Below are positions 2,394 through 22,932 of a DNA stretch of 39,867 nt, in pieces. Position numbers and translations under genes: made by a program. The notes under the pieces were generated by a model that ran no database searches, was not told where the DNA came from, and saw only the letters and a program-made list of their open reading frames with translations. The stretch lies in IMG/VR virus record IMGVR_UViG_2579778622_000004, one strand, 5' to 3'. How positions within the stretch are numbered: the stretch's first letter is position 1; every line of letters begins with the position of its first letter. The stretch is from a virus (taxonomy: Duplodnaviria; Heunggongvirae; Uroviricota; Caudoviricetes).

Positions 2394-2629
2394 TGGCTGC
2401 CTCCTTTGCGGAGTTGCGCTTCGATGCACGAAAAAAAAGACTCCCGAGTATGACTGTTAAGAGCTGGTGCGAACGCCGCGTTAAGAACGGCAGCATCACA
2501 GCCGTCATCAATATAGAGCGCAATTTTTTTCTCCAGGCGCGCTTTGGCTTCCTGCAACTGCATACCCCGGCACGCACGCGGGATATAATCAGCAATTTGA
2601 GCGATAGCTTTTTCGTTCTGTTTAAACAT
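2390..2629 (-). CDS. Hypothetical small protein (79 aa) ending in the shared QLRKGGSQ tail
   Basis: ORF with GAGGTG RBS; stop overlaps GTG of next gene. Confidence 0.35.
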   Translation of the reverse strand: MFKQNEKAIAQIADYIPRACRGMQLQEAKARLEKKIALYIDDGCDAAVLNAAFAPALNSHTRESFFSCIEAQLRKGGSQ

Positions 2630-2825
2630 GCTTCACCTCGATAGGCTTGATGGTGTCTAACAGCAGTCGACGGCGCGTATTTTCTGCAAAGTGGCGGCGT
2701 CCGGTATCTTTGTGGTAAAACTCATTTTTGCCGACGACCCACATCCGCTCTGTTTGGTGCAGTTTTTTTACCTGCGGACCGTCTTTGGTGATCACGGTGC
2801 CGGTATGGGTTTTTACGATTGTCAT
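2622..2825 (-). CDS. Hypothetical small basic protein (67 aa)
   Basis: ORF in operon context; 8-nt overlap with downstream start. Confidence 0.35.
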   Translation of the reverse strand: MTIVKTHTGTVITKDGPQVKKLHQTERMWVVGKNEFYHKDTGRRHFAENTRRRLLLDTIKPIEVKHV

Positions 2826-3646: not shown

Positions 3647-3733
3647 TTACCCATGCGCGACGATGCCGCCAAAAGTGATAGAGAACAGCCAGAAATAGAT
3701 CGCGGCCATAATGATTTTGAATGCCGTGTTCAT
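3647..3733 (-). CDS. Small hydrophobic peptide (28 aa), single predicted transmembrane helix
   Basis: ATG at 3733 preceded by CAGGAGCTG; MNTAFKIIMAAIYFWLFSITFGGIVAHG; not in supplied ORF track (below size cutoff). Confidence 0.3.
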   Translation of the reverse strand: MNTAFKIIMAAIYFWLFSITFGGIVAHG

Positions 3734-3815
3734 ATTTTCAGCTCCTGTGATTGATTGGATACATGCCGCGCCTTACGGCATGTTTTTATTTTCACTTTCT
3801 CTGTTTTAAAAATCA

Positions 3816-3832
3816 AGATTTATTAGAGCAAT
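3816..3832 (-). promoter_or_regulatory. C1-type operator (16/17 match to ATTGCTCTAATAAATTT)
   Basis: Reverse complement of 3816..3832 is ATTGCTCTAATAAATCT; lies between HAD gene stop and the small-peptide/ASCH operon. Confidence 0.55.
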
Positions 3833-4338
3833 TATTGTTGATGTAGAAGCGCGTTTTCATACTCCCTGACCATTAACGTAAGTACGCCGTGACTCCTGAA
3901 AACACGCGCCACTTCAATCTTATCTTCCAGCGCGAACGCAATTTTACTTAGACCAATTTTCTTCAGGAGATCAATCTTTGCTGGACCGTCATTTCTGTCA
4001 TCGGTGGCAGGACGCATAGATAGCAAAGGCTCCGCCCCATTTGTTACGTGCTTACGCAACCAGGCTCGTGTTTTATCCCTGGCTATCTCACAGCGCCCGG
4101 TTACAAACCAGAGGGTGTAAATGCCGGACAACTGGCGCACCATATCAATAACTGGAGTGATGGGAGCATCAGTGTCACAGGCAAGGTTAAACTCGTTCCA
4201 GTGCTCTGTTAATGCACCTTTGCCAGGTGGTGGAAGTAAATGCAGCCTGTCTTCCGTTGCCTCTGATATCGTCCCATCAATATCTACTATGACGATGTAC
4301 GGACGTTCCTGGTGTGCGTGTTTATTGAAAATACTCAA
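3832..4338 (-). CDS. HAD-superfamily phosphatase-like protein
   Basis: 168 aa; motif I VIVDIDGTI (DxDGT), downstream conserved T/K/acidic motifs. Confidence 0.55.
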   Translation of the reverse strand: MSIFNKHAHQERPYIVIVDIDGTISEATEDRLHLLPPPGKGALTEHWNEFNLACDTDAPITPVIDMVRQLSGIYTLWFVTGRCEIARDKTRAWLRKHVTNGAEPLLSMRPATDDRNDGPAKIDLLKKIGLSKIAFALEDKIEVARVFRSHGVLTLMVREYENALLHQQ

Positions 4339-4410
4339 ATGCCCTCCTCATTGGACGAAAAAAATGCTGGTGGGCGCACTCCACCAGCATTAAATGTGAC
4401 ACTGTAACTA

Positions 4411-5673
4411 TCAGCGAACGTAAATAGTGCCGCCGTTCTCTTTTTCCCATGCATCGCTAAGTGCATAGCAAACATCAAGAAGTCTTCTTGCCGCTGTTTC
4501 CTCTAAACCCAATTCGACAACCAACTGCTCATGACGGCGGGTAACCACATCAAACAGGGTATGCAGCCCTTTAGTTGCCAGATCATCAATGAATTCCGGT
4601 TCGAACGGCAGCTCTACCTCTGCCAACATAACCTCTTGCGCCCACTCAACTCGACGGACCAGTTCCGGGCGGCGGCTTTCCATCTCTTTACAGATCAATT
4701 CATGGAAGAACTCTACCCAACCTTCCGGCTGGAACTCGCGGAAAATTGCCAACGGCTGGAAGTTTGGCATCAACCATTCGTTGATCCGGATATCAATGGC
4801 ATAGCCCATGTCGCAGCAGAACTGATAAGCAAAGTCCAGCTTAGAAACGATATAAGGACGCTCGTTATTGAACTCTTTAGGCGATGAGATCCCATAAGCC
4901 AGGAGGCGCGGGAAGAAGGAGATTTGCCCTAACGTCGGATGAAGTTTGCTTGCAGGGAAACGGCGCTCAGTAATGCCATACATTTCCTTCTTGAGCGTCG
5001 CAAATTTGGCATTCTCATTAACCAGCGCGGTAACCTCTGCTTTTTTATTAGCAAATGCCACGCGCGCTTCGCTTGCATCTTTAATAGTTTTTTTGAGCTG
5101 TTGGTTAAGGTCGGCGACCTGCTTACGCAGTTCCTGTCGCTCGCTTTTAGCTTTGTTATAGCGTTTCTCAAGGTTAAAAGGATCAAGTTTCATGATCTCT
5201 TTATATTGAGATTTTAGCGTTGAAATCTGTGAGTTCCGCAGTTCAACCATCGCGGTCATTTCATTGAGTTTTGTTTCCAGCTCAATGCTTATACGTTCGG
5301 CATTATCAGCACGCTGGTTGGCGTCATGCGTCGCATCGTCGATCGCGTCCTGTTGCTGGCGTTTCAAATGTTCAATTTGCAGCTGAAGCTCTTCAATTTC
5401 TTTACCCTTCAGACCGAGATCCAACTGCATATTTTCAGCTGCATCTACCAGGGAGTTATGGCTATCAGCTTCTGCGTTATAAACATCAATAAGCTGTGCG
5501 TGAAGCATCTCCGCTGACTGAACCGCATTATCAAAAAAACGTGCTGTGAGGTCATCACAACTAACGCGGCGTTGCGCGGCCCGGATGTTCTGGATAATGG
5601 CCGGGATACCGGCATTCAGGACATCAGGGATAGATACATTTTCGATTGATTGGTTTTGTGCTGAAGTGCTCAT
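4411..5673 (-). CDS. Coiled-coil protein of unknown function (420 aa)
   Basis: Long heptad-like charged central region (approx aa 90-240) and Cys/Trp-containing C-terminal domain; no recognisable catalytic motif. Confidence 0.6.
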   Translation of the reverse strand: MSTSAQNQSIENVSIPDVLNAGIPAIIQNIRAAQRRVSCDDLTARFFDNAVQSAEMLHAQLIDVYNAEADSHNSLVDAAENMQLDLGLKGKEIEELQLQIEHLKRQQQDAIDDATHDANQRADNAERISIELETKLNEMTAMVELRNSQISTLKSQYKEIMKLDPFNLEKRYNKAKSERQELRKQVADLNQQLKKTIKDASEARVAFANKKAEVTALVNENAKFATLKKEMYGITERRFPASKLHPTLGQISFFPRLLAYGISSPKEFNNERPYIVSKLDFAYQFCCDMGYAIDIRINEWLMPNFQPLAIFREFQPEGWVEFFHELICKEMESRRPELVRRVEWAQEVMLAEVELPFEPEFIDDLATKGLHTLFDVVTRRHEQLVVELGLEETAARRLLDVCYALSDAWEKENGGTIYVR

Positions 5674-5674
5674 T

Positions 5675-5893
5675 TCAAAGTTCCGTATTAGCTTGTGCTT
5701 CGGTCATTTTTCCTAAGTATGAAGGAGGAAGGACTACGCAATTTGTATCCAGTCCCTCACCTATGGCAGCCTGTAAAATTCTGGCTAAGGTGAGTCTCTT
5801 GTTGCGATACCTGGTGATGACATGCCTGATACCGCCGGTCGGCGTAACAAAGGCGATCAGCCAGTAGTGATATTTCCGTCGGAATGGCCACAT
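5675..5893 (-). CDS. Hypothetical small protein (72 aa)
   Basis: ATG at 5893 with AAGGTG RBS; stop adjacent to next start. Confidence 0.35.
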   Translation of the reverse strand: MWPFRRKYHYWLIAFVTPTGGIRHVITRYRNKRLTLARILQAAIGEGLDTNCVVLPPSYLGKMTEAQANTEL

Positions 5894-5907
5894 AGTGCAC
5901 CTTGTAG

Positions 5908-5924
5908 ATTGCTCTAATAAAAAA
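5908..5924 (+). promoter_or_regulatory. C1-type operator (14/17)
   Basis: ATTGCTCTAATAAAAAA; overlaps left arm of hairpin. Confidence 0.45.
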
Positions 5925-5948
5925 CGTGATGAGTGTACATCACGTTTT
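5921..5948. terminator. Bidirectional rho-independent terminator-like hairpin
   Basis: AAAACGTGATG / CATCACGTTTT 11-bp inverted repeat with 6-nt loop, A-run before and T-run after on both strands. Confidence 0.55.
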
Positions 5949-5956
5949 AAAAATAT

Positions 5957-5973
5957 GGAATTATTAGAGCAAT
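5957..5973 (-). promoter_or_regulatory. C1-type operator (14/17)
   Basis: Reverse complement ATTGCTCTAATAATTCC; abuts stop of 5975..6676. Confidence 0.45.
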
Positions 5974-5974
5974 A

Positions 5975-6676
5975 TTATTCTGATTCTCGCTCAAAAAACG
6001 AGCTAATAAGGGGAAGCCAATCCTCTGACACTTCGCGAGGTCGCGGTTTGCCGTGGAAAAAGATTATTCGGCAGTCCTTTGGTAATGCCCCATTCCCCCT
6101 GGAGTAACGCGCGCTCGCATATTTTGAACCAGGTTCCACAACATCGGCCTTGTAACTTACAAACCATCCTGGATACAGATCCTGAAATGCTGGTGTATCA
6201 TCGCCCATAACCTTCCGTAAGAACCCCTGATCACCCCAGCACTCAGTAGTGACACAACGAGAAATCCAACCTTCCGGATCTTGCCAGAATGAACTCCAGA
6301 TATGCGCTTTAACACTATTTGGTATCCACAAGGCACCGCTGCCACGATATTGTGGATGGTAAAAATCCCTAAGCATGGTGAAGCTGGTTGGTGGATGCTC
6401 TAGGATTGGGCGTATATCACCGGCAATAACCGTGTCCAAATCCAGATAGAACAGATCATCGGTTATATCCGGTCGGAACAACTCGATTTTCGCCCACCAG
6501 CCACGGCACTTTTGCCACTGGTTGATCAATGGGACAACTTTGACGCCAGGTACATGTAAACGCTTCAGGTCTGTCAGGCAAATAATTTCATAGCCTTTTG
6601 GCAGTTGATTAACCAGCCACTGCACATCGGAAGCGTTATAGTCACCACCAGAGCGAAAAACTAAAGCAATCTTCAT
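5975..6676 (-). CDS. Putative GT-A-fold glycosyltransferase (DXD-type)
   Basis: 233 aa; [14 protein letters not shown]-terminus, LDLD acidic motif, GWWAKIELF; assignment by pattern only. Confidence 0.4.
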
Positions 6677-19656: not shown

Positions 19657-21665
19657 ATACCCAAAACGTCATGAGCTACACCTCGAGTGTCCCCCTTACA
19701 AGACACAGAACGTCTGGCAAAAAGAGGTTCCACTCTGAAGCCACTGTCATGATAAAGCTCTCTGATGTTTGGCGCGCCACTGTTAGTAATGAGAACCTTT
19801 GCACCTCGACGATGAGCATCCGTCAACAGAGACACCAGGCGTTTTTGCTCTTCAAACTTAAAGTCATGACCGGAATAGTTCGTGAATCCCTCTGTATTTG
19901 GAAGCGGTTCATACGGCGGATCGCAAAAGATGACATCTCCTTCTCCGGCAGCTTCAATCACCGCTGCAAAATCACCGCATACAAACTCAGACCGCCCTTC
20001 CGCACCGAGGAAGGCTTCCATCTCCTGTAATGGGAAATACGGAGTTTTATACTTCCCATAACCGACATTGAACTCACCGGCCTGGTTGTAACGCGTCAAT
20101 CCGTTAAAACAATGTCGGTTCAGGAACAAAAACGCCGCTGCGCGATGTAAATCATCATAGACTTGTTTGTTAAACGCATTCCGTACTGCCAGGTATCCTT
20201 CCTGTGTGTTGTAGTCCTGGAAGAAACGATGTGCCAGAGTGATAAGTGAATGCGCCTCGCGTTGCAGAGTCTTGTAAAAGTTAATCAGGTCAGCATTCAC
20301 ATCATTTAGCAGATTTTCCTGGTATCCGGCATTCATGAAGACAGCTCCGCCACCAACGAAAGGTTCAATCAGGCGCTTCCCTTCTGGCAAATAGCGAAAG
20401 ATTTGTTCCAGAACACCAAATTTTCCACCAGCCCATTTGAATATGGACCGTTCGAATTCTGCCGCTGGTTTAACTTTTCGCTCTTTTGTTTCACTTCCTT
20501 CTTTCTGCCGACATACGGCCTTAGTAATCCGATCGCCAATCCAGCGCATTACTGGTATTGCCATACTATTGCCGATCGCTTTGTAACGCGGTCCGTCAGC
20601 TGCAAGCATCGCGGCCTCTTCTTCGCTCAAATCAGGATAGTTTTTGCGAAGGTATGCCAGTTCATCTGAAGAAACTTTTTTACGCTTTTCCGTAGGGATC
20701 AATGTATGTCCATCAGGAAAACCTTGCAGCCTTTCACATTCGACAGGGATAAGACGGCGCATTCTACCGTCGCCGAGCAATACAATTGGTGCTTCATGGT
20801 TACATGTCAAAGTTGGTGCCGAATTATCGGTTTTTATCTCAGCCCCTCCTTGCCCATGTGCCATGGCAACTATGTTTGTATCATCGCAAGATCTGATAGC
20901 GATGTTTGAAGTATATCTGGTAGTTTCCTTCCCCTCGCCTCTGCTCGGCGCAATATCCCGGCGCACGCCTTCGAACTCAAAAAGTACCGTTGCGGGATCG
21001 AGGTCTGTTCGAGCACTTGCGACAACAAACACGCGTCGGCGTCGTTGTGCCACTCCGAAGTATTGGGCATCAAGGATTCTCCAGGCCACTTTTCGCTGCG
21101 GTCCATAAATACAACCACACTGCGGCCACTTTGGAGCATGGCAACCGGTTTTGACATCCCACCGCCAGAACGCGTTACTTTTTCCTGATTCAGGTCGATC
21201 ACCTGGTTCGAATGGCGCATCTTCTCCAGCCAATCCGGCAAGGAAACATCCGAAGGCGTTATCTGCCGATGACAAGACTCCTGGGACATTTTCCCAGACG
21301 ATAACGGATGGTTTGAGAAATGACTCAGCCCGTTTGTCGTCAATTGCATTTGCAAGCTCCACATACTTTAAAGTTAGCGCGCCACGCTCATCATCAAGCC
21401 CACCACGTAATCCCGCGATACTGAATGCCTGACAAGGTGTTCCCCCGACGAGCACATCAGGGGATTCGATTTCCCCAGCCAGGACTTTTTTGGCAAGTTT
21501 TGTCATGTCGCCAAGGTTGGCGACATGGGGCCAGCGGTGCGCAAGAACGGCAGATGGAAAAGGCTCGATTTCAGCAAACCACGCCGGACGCATACCCAAC
21601 GGTTCCCAGGCAATACTCGCGGCTTCAATTCCACTGCAAACAGATCCATAGCACAGCTCTTTCAC
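19647..21665 (-). CDS. dmt: Fused DNA methyltransferase: N-terminal C5-cytosine MTase, C-terminal Dam-like N6-adenine MTase
   Basis: 672 aa; GGTPCQAFS (PCQ) and ENV motifs in N half; KWAGGK and DPPY motifs in C half. Confidence 0.85.
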
Positions 21666-22567
21666 TGCTTAGCCTCTCCACCAAGGGCATTTACCAGAGC
21701 ATCAACCAGGCACGAAATTTCACTGGTCAACAGGAAGAAATCTGCGTCCAGTCGCTGCGCTACATCTTCACTATCAATATCAGAGTTCTGATCAAGCAAT
21801 TCATCCGCAAATTTGACGCTGGTAAGGCTGAAGTTATGGTCCAGTGTAAATTTAATGCGGTTCTGCCAGTCGAGTGCCAACTTAGTGACGAGCTTGCCAG
21901 CTTCCAGGTGTGTGGAAATTTCATCGCTTCCCAAATCCTGCTTTTTCACTCGGGCAATACCGCCATCCTCAAGCACTGCCTTAAGTTCTGCCGCATCCCC
22001 CATTTGAAATCCCTGTGGAGCACTACCATCACGTACCCAGTCGGTCAGCGTTAATTCAATGGGATTTTCAACACTCAGGGGAACAACAGGAAGAGAACCC
22101 AGAGACTTACGCATAAGCGCGAGCATATCCTCTGCCTGCCGCGCGCTGGCATTGATATAGATACGTTTAGTTGAACCGTCGTAGATCGCCTGGATAACAG
22201 AAAACTTTGAAAAAGCCCGTGGCAGAAGAGAATGCAGAACTTCGTCTTTCAGGGAGTCCTTCTCTGTTTTCTTCAGTTTACGCGCTTGTTCTTGCTCAAG
22301 TTTTTCAATTTTTTCTTGAATAGCTCGCTGGATAACCGGCGGGGGAAGAATTTTTGTTTCGCGCTTTGCTTCAACAAGGATAAAACCATTTCCATGCATA
22401 GCGATAACTTCGGAATTATCACCAAATGGAGATACAAAACCGAACTTGGCCATATCCTGACTACCGCATGGCGTGAAAAGGATCATTTTCTTTTTATCTT
22501 CTAAGTCGGTCAGATCCGCCTCACGAGAAAGTTTATAAATAGTAATGTTTTTCCAGTGCTTAAACAT
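21662..22567 (-). CDS. hrdC: RdgC-like recombination-associated protein (P1 HrdC-like)
   Basis: Strong resemblance to E. coli RdgC throughout ([35 protein letters not shown]); likely start MFKHWK at 22567 rather than track start 22681. Confidence 0.85.
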
Positions 22568-22907
22568 GTTGTAACCCTTGAATATCAACCACAGAAAGCT
22601 CGTCTTTGTAGAAAAAGGCCAGGTTGTGGCACCCCCTCGTTTGAGCGTATGAGCTGGGACCAATTTCGTTCTTCCAGACAAATGGCTTCAAATCCGTACG
22701 GCGAAGCATAAAAACGCGATTTGTTCCGCTCTGATTCCCAATGAGGCAAAAGCCTTCTTTCACCTTGATAGCCTGCAAGTTGTCGAGTTCACCGCTGGTT
22801 ACACGGCTATCGAACTCTTTGCGGCTTATTAGCTCCATCTGCATCTGACGACTCCAAACAAATGCCCATTGAAGGGCGATGGCTGAATGGTACCGAAAAT
22901 ACGACAT
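22560..22907 (-). CDS. Hypothetical protein upstream of hrdC
   Basis: ATG at 22907 (track uses TTG at 22916); overlaps hrdC start. Confidence 0.4.
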
Positions 22908-22915
22908 AAAAAACA

Positions 22916-22932
22916 ATATTTATTAGAGCAAT
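22916..22932 (-). promoter_or_regulatory. C1-type operator (16/17)
   Basis: Reverse complement ATTGCTCTAATAAATAT immediately upstream of the uhr-hrdC-dmt-like operon. Confidence 0.55.

Follow-up and report, generated by a model that had tools for sequence, protein, structure and literature searches.

The pmgR-pmgS-pap region of a P1-type phage-plasmid: a C1-controlled gene pair, a predicted 3'-phosphatase and a probably misnamed 'head morphogenesis' protein

The closest described counterpart of the locus considered here is the pmgR-pmgS-pap region of the temperate phage-plasmid P1 (AF234172, 82152-84309), which corresponds to shtA-shtB-pap in P7 (AF503408). The locus has long been annotated in P1, with operators, promoter and coding sequences given in AF234172 and AF503408, and AF234172 notes that the operator 'controls expression of pmgR and pmgS'. 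With an in-frame deletion of pmgR, infectious virions are no longer made and lysates contain only tails and incomplete heads; the defect is complemented in trans, and PmgR is not detected in virions (PMC9024508). The in-frame deletion of pmgS was among 24 mutants without a plaquing or antirestriction defect (PMC9024508), pmgS was non-essential by CRISPR interference (CRISPRi; PMC10695390), and deletion of pap gave no plaque phenotype (PMC9024508, PMC10695390). Here we analysed the corresponding region, positions 3832-5893 on the minus strand, in a window of 39,867 nt (the whole stretch of DNA studied) from the virus record IMGVR_UViG_2579778622_000004 (Caudoviricetes).

A megablast search with positions 3700-6100 returned 19 P1-group phage records with full query coverage and 97.4-98.9% nucleotide identity, including RCS47, P1, P7 and SJ46 (98.2% identity to P1 and 98.9% to RCS47), and in the matching records the genes are annotated as pmgR, pmgS and pap or, in P7, as shtA, shtB and pap. 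Three minus-strand open reading frames of the window correspond one-to-one to coding sequences of AF234172 (lengths in amino acids, aa):

5675-5893, minus strand: pmgR, 72 aa; open reading frame, match to PHROG 3177 (unknown function), P1 annotation.
4411-5673, minus strand: pmgS, 420 aa; open reading frame, P1 annotation.
3832-4338, minus strand: pap, 168 aa, with a TTG start preceded by GAGGAGGG; open reading frame, matches to PF25109 and to PHROG 415 and 505.

It is near certain that this is the pmgR-pmgS-pap region of a P1-type temperate phage-plasmid. An earlier note, made from the letters alone, had placed a 72-aa protein, a 420-aa protein and a phosphatase at 3832-5893, and the three reading frames lie exactly there; it had considered the combination unassignable, which does not hold for a named segment of P1 annotated long ago. 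Our reading of the whole, to which we give a probability of about 0.85, is that of a P1-type pmgR-pmgS-pap locus in which pmgR and pmgS are controlled by C1 and pap is expressed by read-through, PmgR being a factor of the P1 lineage, PmgS an early factor that is not part of the virion, and Pap a 3'-phosphatase. The three proteins have three different jobs and do not form one functional unit. The locus itself adds nothing new, having stood in the P1 genome record for two decades with knockouts of all three genes published; what is added is the splitting of the 'trio' into unrelated functions, a correction of the names given to Pap, a domain map of PmgS, and a tie between the PmgS family and early DNA-metabolism genes.

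The control of the region was assessed by searching the window with the P1 C1 consensus ATTGCTCTAATAAATTT, a 17-bp asymmetric site, using 100 shuffles of the window as a control. Eight matches were observed where 0.24 were expected, and none of the 100 shuffles gave at least eight. Three of the sites, at 5957-5973 (minus strand), 5908-5924 (plus strand) and 3816-3832 (minus strand), lie at or overlap a sigma-70 promoter, as P1 C1 operators do. The elements concerned are as follows:

5957-5973, minus strand: C1 operator OpmgRa (formerly Op86a), three mismatches to the consensus, annotated in P1 AF234172.
5967-5972, minus strand: -35 hexamer TTGCTC of the promoter PpmgR, overlapped by OpmgRa; the promoter is a prediction (sigma-70).
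5944-5949, minus strand: predicted -10 hexamer TAAAAC of PpmgR, its position transferred from the P1 annotation through a 100% identical alignment.
5921-5948, minus strand: perfect 11-bp inverted repeat AAAACGTGATG/CATCACGTTTT with a 6-nt loop, followed by a T run, between both Op86 operators.
5908-5924, plus strand: C1 operator OpmgRb (formerly Op86b), consensus match, annotated in P1 and P7.
3816-3832, minus strand: C1 operator OpmgT (formerly Op88), one mismatch to the consensus, annotated in P1 together with the promoters P1pmgT and P2pmgT.

Over the 101 nt around the start of pmgR, window, P1 and P7 do not differ (100% identity), and for the Op88 region identity is about 98%. OpmgRb is inverted relative to OpmgRa and lies about 40 nt downstream of it, past the predicted transcription start, and its 13-nt core is the perfect complement of the OpmgRa core. 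In a lysogen, C1 bound at Op86a, over the PpmgR -35, and at Op86b, just past the start site, would silence pmgR and pmgS, and loss of C1 would lead to their early transcription. Operators at 5908/5957 and 3816 and a lysogeny-repressor logic had been proposed in the earlier note, and both are upheld, these sites being the annotated OpmgRa, OpmgRb and OpmgT of P1 in a control region identical to that of P1 and P7. The proposal that the operators bound the region holds for its upstream side, where Op86a and Op86b control pmgR and pmgS, whereas Op88 merely marks the region's end and controls the next operon: the first base of OpmgT coincides with the final base of the stop codon of pap, and this operator overlaps the promoters of that operon.

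RNA folding of positions 5894-5980 gave -26.9 kcal/mol (z = -7.7), a value matched by none of 200 shuffles, and the 5' arm of the nested hairpin at 5921-5948 overlaps the annotated PpmgR -10. This hairpin looks like a terminator for transcripts of pmgQ, the gene upstream, and transcripts from PpmgR, which would start inside it, may thereby escape termination. Among the features returned for AF234172 there was no terminator at this position.

Within the region, the pmgR stop codon is separated from the pmgS ATG by a single nucleotide (TGA-A-ATG), and translation of the two is probably coupled. A different junction follows pmgS:

4363-4391, minus strand: intrinsic terminator between pmgS and pap, a perfect 11-bp stem with six G-C pairs, a 7-nt loop and TTTTTTT, found by terminator scan, folding and repeat search.

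This terminator, a strong one by prediction, is conserved in P1 and P7 and ends about 25 nt before the pap start codon, which leaves no room for a promoter of its own, so that pap would be made only by read-through, with most transcripts ending at the hairpin past pmgS. As a candidate promoter for pap, a late-promoter -22 box of the LPhot type in P1 (AAGTTACTT) was matched at six of nine positions upstream of the gene without a good -10, and was rejected. The unit supported by the predicted signals is thus pmgR together with pmgS, and pap follows it in attenuated form. The description of the locus as an operator-controlled trio was therefore overstated, because the P1 operator note names pmgR and pmgS, the terminator splits off pap and Op88 serves the next operon; the three proteins also differ in their phylogenetic distributions. 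A P1vir transcriptome preprint names pmgS and pap as over-induced in an hfq-deletion host 10 and 20 min into infection, so that transcripts of both were measured there.

PmgR is small, confined to the P1 lineage and, according to the published knockout, essential. A profile search found homologues in 27 clusters only, and every long contig carrying one measures 89-98 kb, the size of P1. Relatives of PmgR lie immediately upstream of PmgS in two divergent P1-like loci, L005 (36% identity) and L006, and none was found beside PmgS at the sampled non-P1 loci, where the small upstream open reading frames are unrelated.

For Pap, the small haloacid dehalogenase (HAD) phosphatase named in the earlier note is confirmed and can be placed in the PNKP-type HAD family PF25109 (HAD_PNKP; 44.1 bits against a cut-off of 27.6, E = 3e-11). 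Pap also matches PHROG 415 and 505, both labelled 'polynucleotide kinase', the match to PHROG 505 covering profile positions 156-292, its phosphatase part only. When aligned to the phosphatase domain of T4 Pnkp (PDB 1LTQ, residues 162-301), Pap pairs with what we take to be the essential active-site residues of the T4 enzyme: D19 with D165, D21 with D167, R31 with R176, D57 with D187, T80-G-R82 with S211-G-R213, D117 with D254, K121 with K258, and E138-D139 with D277-D278, so that the DxDxT motif is kept. The 168 residues contain no Walker A motif and no kinase domain. Two other identities were considered and rejected: a HAD class IIIB acid phosphatase, the origin of the name, reached only 12.7 bits with PF03767 against a cut-off of 27 (E = 0.092), and a bifunctional or 5'-polynucleotide kinase is at odds with the lack of a P-loop and the restriction of the PHROG 505 match to the phosphatase part. 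Pap is thus a predicted stand-alone T4-Pnkp-type HAD polynucleotide 3'-phosphatase, for which both names, acid phosphatase and kinase, are misleading; its substrates may be nucleotides, or nicked or cleaved nucleic acids, from which it would remove 3'-phosphates.

T4 Pnkp acts with Rnl1 to repair nucleic acid cut by host defence nucleases, and by analogy the region could be a nucleic-acid end-repair module in which Pap heals 3'-phosphate ends of tRNA or DNA cut by such nucleases, PmgS binds the substrate and Ppp helps. The retained catalytic residues and the PF25109 match fit this proposal, as do the metallophosphoesterase Ppp, encoded two genes upstream, a Pap-like gene four genes downstream of pmgS in the divergent locus L006, and three tRNA genes in the window:

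17116-17191, minus strand: tRNA gene, anticodon CAT (called Met).
18820-18895, minus strand: tRNA gene, anticodon TGT (Thr).
18898-18973, minus strand: tRNA gene, anticodon GTT (Asn).

However, Pap lacks the kinase half of the T4 enzyme, no ligase partner was seen among the open reading frames and family matches of the region, the terminator splits pap from pmgS, and there is no Pap beside PmgS in L003, L005, L007, L008, L010, L011 or L012. Deletions of pap and ppp are, moreover, without plaque phenotype on laboratory E. coli. We consider a joint repair module very unlikely, and keep to the reading in which Pap and PmgS serve separate functions.

The remaining protein, PmgS, carries in P1 the label 'putative morphogenetic function', in P7 'ShtB, sheath contraction' and in PHROG 1660 'PmgS-like head morphogenesis', and the last of these is spreading into new phage annotations, RefSeq and PHROGs with no experiment behind it. 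The protein can be divided as follows:

aa 1-40 (5554-5673), minus strand: conserved N-terminal helix with RRVxCDDL.
aa 41-146 (5236-5553), minus strand: coiled-coil helix 1 (AlphaFold).
aa 147-164 (5182-5235), minus strand: conserved apex KE..LDP..L.
aa 165-232 (4978-5181), minus strand: coiled-coil helix 2 (AlphaFold).
aa 233-347 (4633-4977), minus strand: beta/alpha domain without a fold match.
aa ~348-420 (4414-4632), minus strand: (HhH)2 domain, built from helix-hairpin-helix (HhH) motifs.

In the AlphaFold model of full-length PmgS, helices span residues 15-36, 41-146 and 165-232 and are followed by a mixed domain, which confirms the long coiled coil reported in the earlier note; weak matches to the arms of SMC (structural maintenance of chromosomes), Rad50 and LmuB proteins agree. 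A model of the C-terminal half, built with a 27-sequence alignment, reached a predicted local distance difference test score (pLDDT) of 90.1 and a predicted template modelling score (pTM) of 0.85, and ends in two helix-hairpin-helix motifs within a five-helix fold, the arrangement that defines an (HhH)2 domain. In HhH motifs a glycine-rich hairpin of the form G-hydrophobic-G contacts the DNA backbone. The corresponding hairpin reads LGLEE in P1-type PmgS against KG[IL]G in most of the family, and the P1 copy has no Pfam HhH match. As for the 'Cys/Trp-rich' C-terminal domain of the earlier note, the composition is real relative to the rest of the protein (four Cys and four Trp among 188 residues, the coiled coil having neither), but it has no functional meaning, as this part is the beta/alpha domain plus (HhH)2 and only W300, W344 and W409, with C402 in part, are conserved family-wide. 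PmgS contains no CxxC and no Walker A motif.

Searches for a characterised homologue of PmgS gave no clear candidate. No Pfam or NCBIfam family scored above threshold, the PDB sequence-profile search returned coiled-coil noise and marginal HhH matches only, the beta/alpha domain (about residues 233-347) had no match in the PDB or the viral structure library, and a Foldseek comparison with predicted structures of viral proteins had no result below E = 0.1; across profile, sequence and structure searches there was no clear homology to a characterised structural or replication protein. An identity as an SMC, Rad50, LmuB or JetC protein was rejected, since the matches (PADLOC, NCBIfam) were at E 1e-4 or worse and confined to the coiled coil, reflecting composition; NCBIfam SMC and Rad50 models gave 14-19 bits there against cut-offs of 567-1000. 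A literature search on PmgS-like and ShtB returned unrelated acronyms only.

PmgS belongs to a moderately broad family. It matches PHROG 1660 over its whole length (E = 3.2e-195, residues 1-420 on profile positions 1-403 of 405), and an exhaustive profile search found relatives in 120 representative clusters, 84 of them below 1e-10, mostly of 370-470 aa and matching end to end. The family alignment shares an N-terminal (K/R)RVxGDDL motif, a near-invariant proline in the apex motif ELK.L...P..LKK at the coiled-coil break, an HPxLxxRxxWA motif and the canonical KG[IL]G hairpin that is degenerate in the P1 group; HHH_5 was matched by 12 of 40 family members and RNA_pol_A_CTD likewise by 12 of 40. 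The hosts are gammaproteobacteria, with relatives on P1-like elements of Escherichia, Salmonella, Cronobacter, Rosenbergiella and Tatumella, on plasmid-sized contigs of 80-110 kb in Leclercia, Raoultella and Vibrio, and in chromosomal prophages of Aeromonas and Photobacterium.

The neighbourhoods of these relatives are early DNA-metabolism blocks (RecET, RdgC, orphan methyltransferases). In Aeromonas the relative is encoded between a cI-like repressor and an integrase, in the series DUF3799 nuclease, RecT, 362-aa protein, PmgS-like protein, Dam, RdgC, and in Photobacterium the order is repressor, YfdP, DUF2303, PmgS-like, MT-A70, integrase. Other relatives lie two genes from Dcm in a plasmid-like contig with ParM/StbA, near TrfA, RdgC and SNF2 in Vibrio, and next to DUF4942, and in a P1-like element of Rosenbergiella (L012), which carries C1, Lpa and a DarB-like protein, the relative is two genes from a Tad2-like gene. 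None of the sampled loci placed a relative in a structural module. The window itself has its copy of a further C1-controlled early operon of P1, with hrdC (an RdgC homologue) and dmt (a methyltransferase) at 19650-22687 on the minus strand and operators at 19629-19656 and 22916-22932. In small prophages and plasmids (L003, L007 and L008), relatives of both products are encoded beside a PmgS relative.

Three further observations concern PmgS. A 67-aa open reading frame at 2622-2825 (minus strand), downstream of a pmgT-like gene, has a homologue at 2911-3099 of L007 (BLASTP E < 1e-6) directly upstream of the PmgS relative, a second unexplained link to the PmgS neighbourhood. In several public assemblies the pmgS allele is frameshifted or truncated, to about 231-249 aa, as might be expected of a dispensable gene, and two gene calls fuse PmgS to a Dcm (PF00145) or a metallophosphoesterase (PF00149) domain, probably through rearrangement or annotation artefact (proteins P0023-P0028, P0002 and P0016 for the alleles and fusions).

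Taken at face value, the existing labels would make PmgS a virion morphogenesis protein, a coiled-coil scaffold or chaperone acting with PmgR in head completion. Besides the P1, P7, PHROG and RefSeq records, this draws on the probable translational coupling to pmgR, itself needed for head completion, on the adjacency of the two genes retained in L005 and L006, and on the long coiled coils that assembly proteins often have. The 'pmg' and 'sht' labels are, however, recorded guesses and not results. A virion or morphogenesis protein would be found in virions or be needed for assembly and would have a late promoter; for pmgS the only promoter annotated is the early, C1-controlled one, its deletion and CRISPRi knock-down are tolerated, and the name PmgS occurs 0 times in the main text of the virion-proteome paper (PMC9024508). 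The C-terminal (HhH)2 domain and the relatives that stand without PmgR, in plasmids and in prophage early operons by RecT, RdgC and methyltransferases, also argue against a role in assembly. Because of the lack of a deletion phenotype, the CRISPRi result, the absence from the proteome text and the early DNA-metabolism contexts, we conclude that the label 'head morphogenesis' is probably wrong and regard a morphogenetic function as distinctly unlikely.

A more specific proposal is that PmgS is an anti-defence protein delivered early, acting for instance as a decoy for SMC-type or DNA-sensing defences of the host, or as their inhibitor. Early expression and dispensability in the laboratory host would suit such a role, and orphan DNA methyltransferases lie within two genes of the PmgS relative in L003, L004, L007, L010 and L011, Tad2-like and DarB-like genes in the neighbourhood of L012, and a coiled coil with an apex loosely recalls SMC arms, with weak matches to the coiled coils of LmuB and JetC. 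Those matches are, however, the compositional ones described above, the knockout library showed no antirestriction change, and a general early DNA-metabolism block would account just as well for the methyltransferases nearby. We consider this narrower role unlikely, and favour for PmgS the more general one of an early accessory factor.

Stated more fully, PmgS would be a dispensable non-virion protein, a coiled-coil stalk with a conserved tip that carries novel beta/alpha and (HhH)2 domains, and it would act early on the element's DNA or on a host partner associated with DNA or RNA polymerase, which groups it with accessory functions in recombination, methylation and anti-defence and not with morphogenesis. 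That PmgS is an early accessory factor associated with DNA or with a polymerase partner is, in our estimate, nearly an even bet. The extension to the family as a whole is tentative and somewhat short of even: its ~120 clusters would represent uncharacterised early proteins of gammaproteobacterial temperate phages, phage-plasmids and plasmids that act on DNA or on a polymerase-associated host factor, as accessories of counter-defence, recombination or methylation, with 'head morphogenesis' a wrong name for all of them. The family is carried by mobile elements, has an unusual architecture with an unmatched domain and lies beside recombination and methylation genes, so that a role in counter-defence or DNA transactions is reasonable to propose for PmgS.

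Several points weigh against this account of the locus. The P1 PmgS hairpin is degenerate, so that DNA binding by the P1-type copy is uncertain, and (HhH)2 and SAM-like domains are also used for contacts between proteins. The tight coupling of pmgR and pmgS is kept in L005 and L006, and PmgS could assist PmgR and hence assembly. The neighbourhood evidence comes from about nine sampled loci. The activities of PmgS and Pap are predictions, the published deletions being without phenotype, and the same applies to the strength of the terminator, the read-through to pap and the start site of PpmgR, a promoter that a generic scan did not call. CRISPRi knock-down of pmgR gave no defect, which its authors counted as a miss (PMC10695390).

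Other features of the window lie on either side of the region. Upstream of pmgR and on the same strand are pmgQ and ppp, the latter encoding a lambda-type Ser/Thr phosphatase (PF00149). The product of pmgQ (5975-6676, minus strand), labelled 'putative morphogenetic function' in P1, matches a PHROG glycosyltransferase (E = 2.5e-128) and is 56% identical to its counterpart in L005, and this 'pmg' label, too, may not reflect morphogenesis. On the downstream side, past the promoters under Op88 control, is an unannotated 28-codon open reading frame, MNTAFKIIMAAIYFWLFSITFGGIVAHG (3647-3733, minus strand), with AGGAG in front of it and a hairpin at 3761-3783 just upstream; its product, strongly hydrophobic and also conserved in P1 and P7, could be a leader peptide or a small peptide of the membrane. 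In the megablast search, alignment to P1 begins only at about 2943, positions 1-2942, outside the region, departing from P1, and the best relatives differ in their reach; the left end of the window therefore lies within the pmgT-pmgV region, which is highly variable among P1-like phage-plasmids (PMC9603915).

The (HhH)2 domain of PmgS resembles the N-terminal domain of RAD51C/RAD51, the AR1/AR2 domains of NusA and the C-terminal domain of the RNA polymerase alpha subunit, but in PmgS it terminates a coiled coil of about 190 residues and an unmatched beta/alpha domain, an architecture absent among the solved structures searched. The protein recalls SMC, Rad50 and LmuB in its long coiled coil, which has two segments and a conserved break or apex between them, and in having globular parts expected at the other end, yet it has no ATPase head and no Walker A motif and is far shorter. 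Pap shares 29% pairwise identity with the T4 Pnkp phosphatase domain, with the active-site positions aligned (S211 as T), and unlike T4 Pnkp it consists of the phosphatase domain alone, with no 5'-kinase domain or P-loop, a conservative change of D277 to E, and a 16-residue insert after motif I. For the locus as a whole, genes, order, lengths, operators, promoter and terminator are common to the window and to P1 and P7, and within the region the window differs from P1 by scattered point substitutions only.

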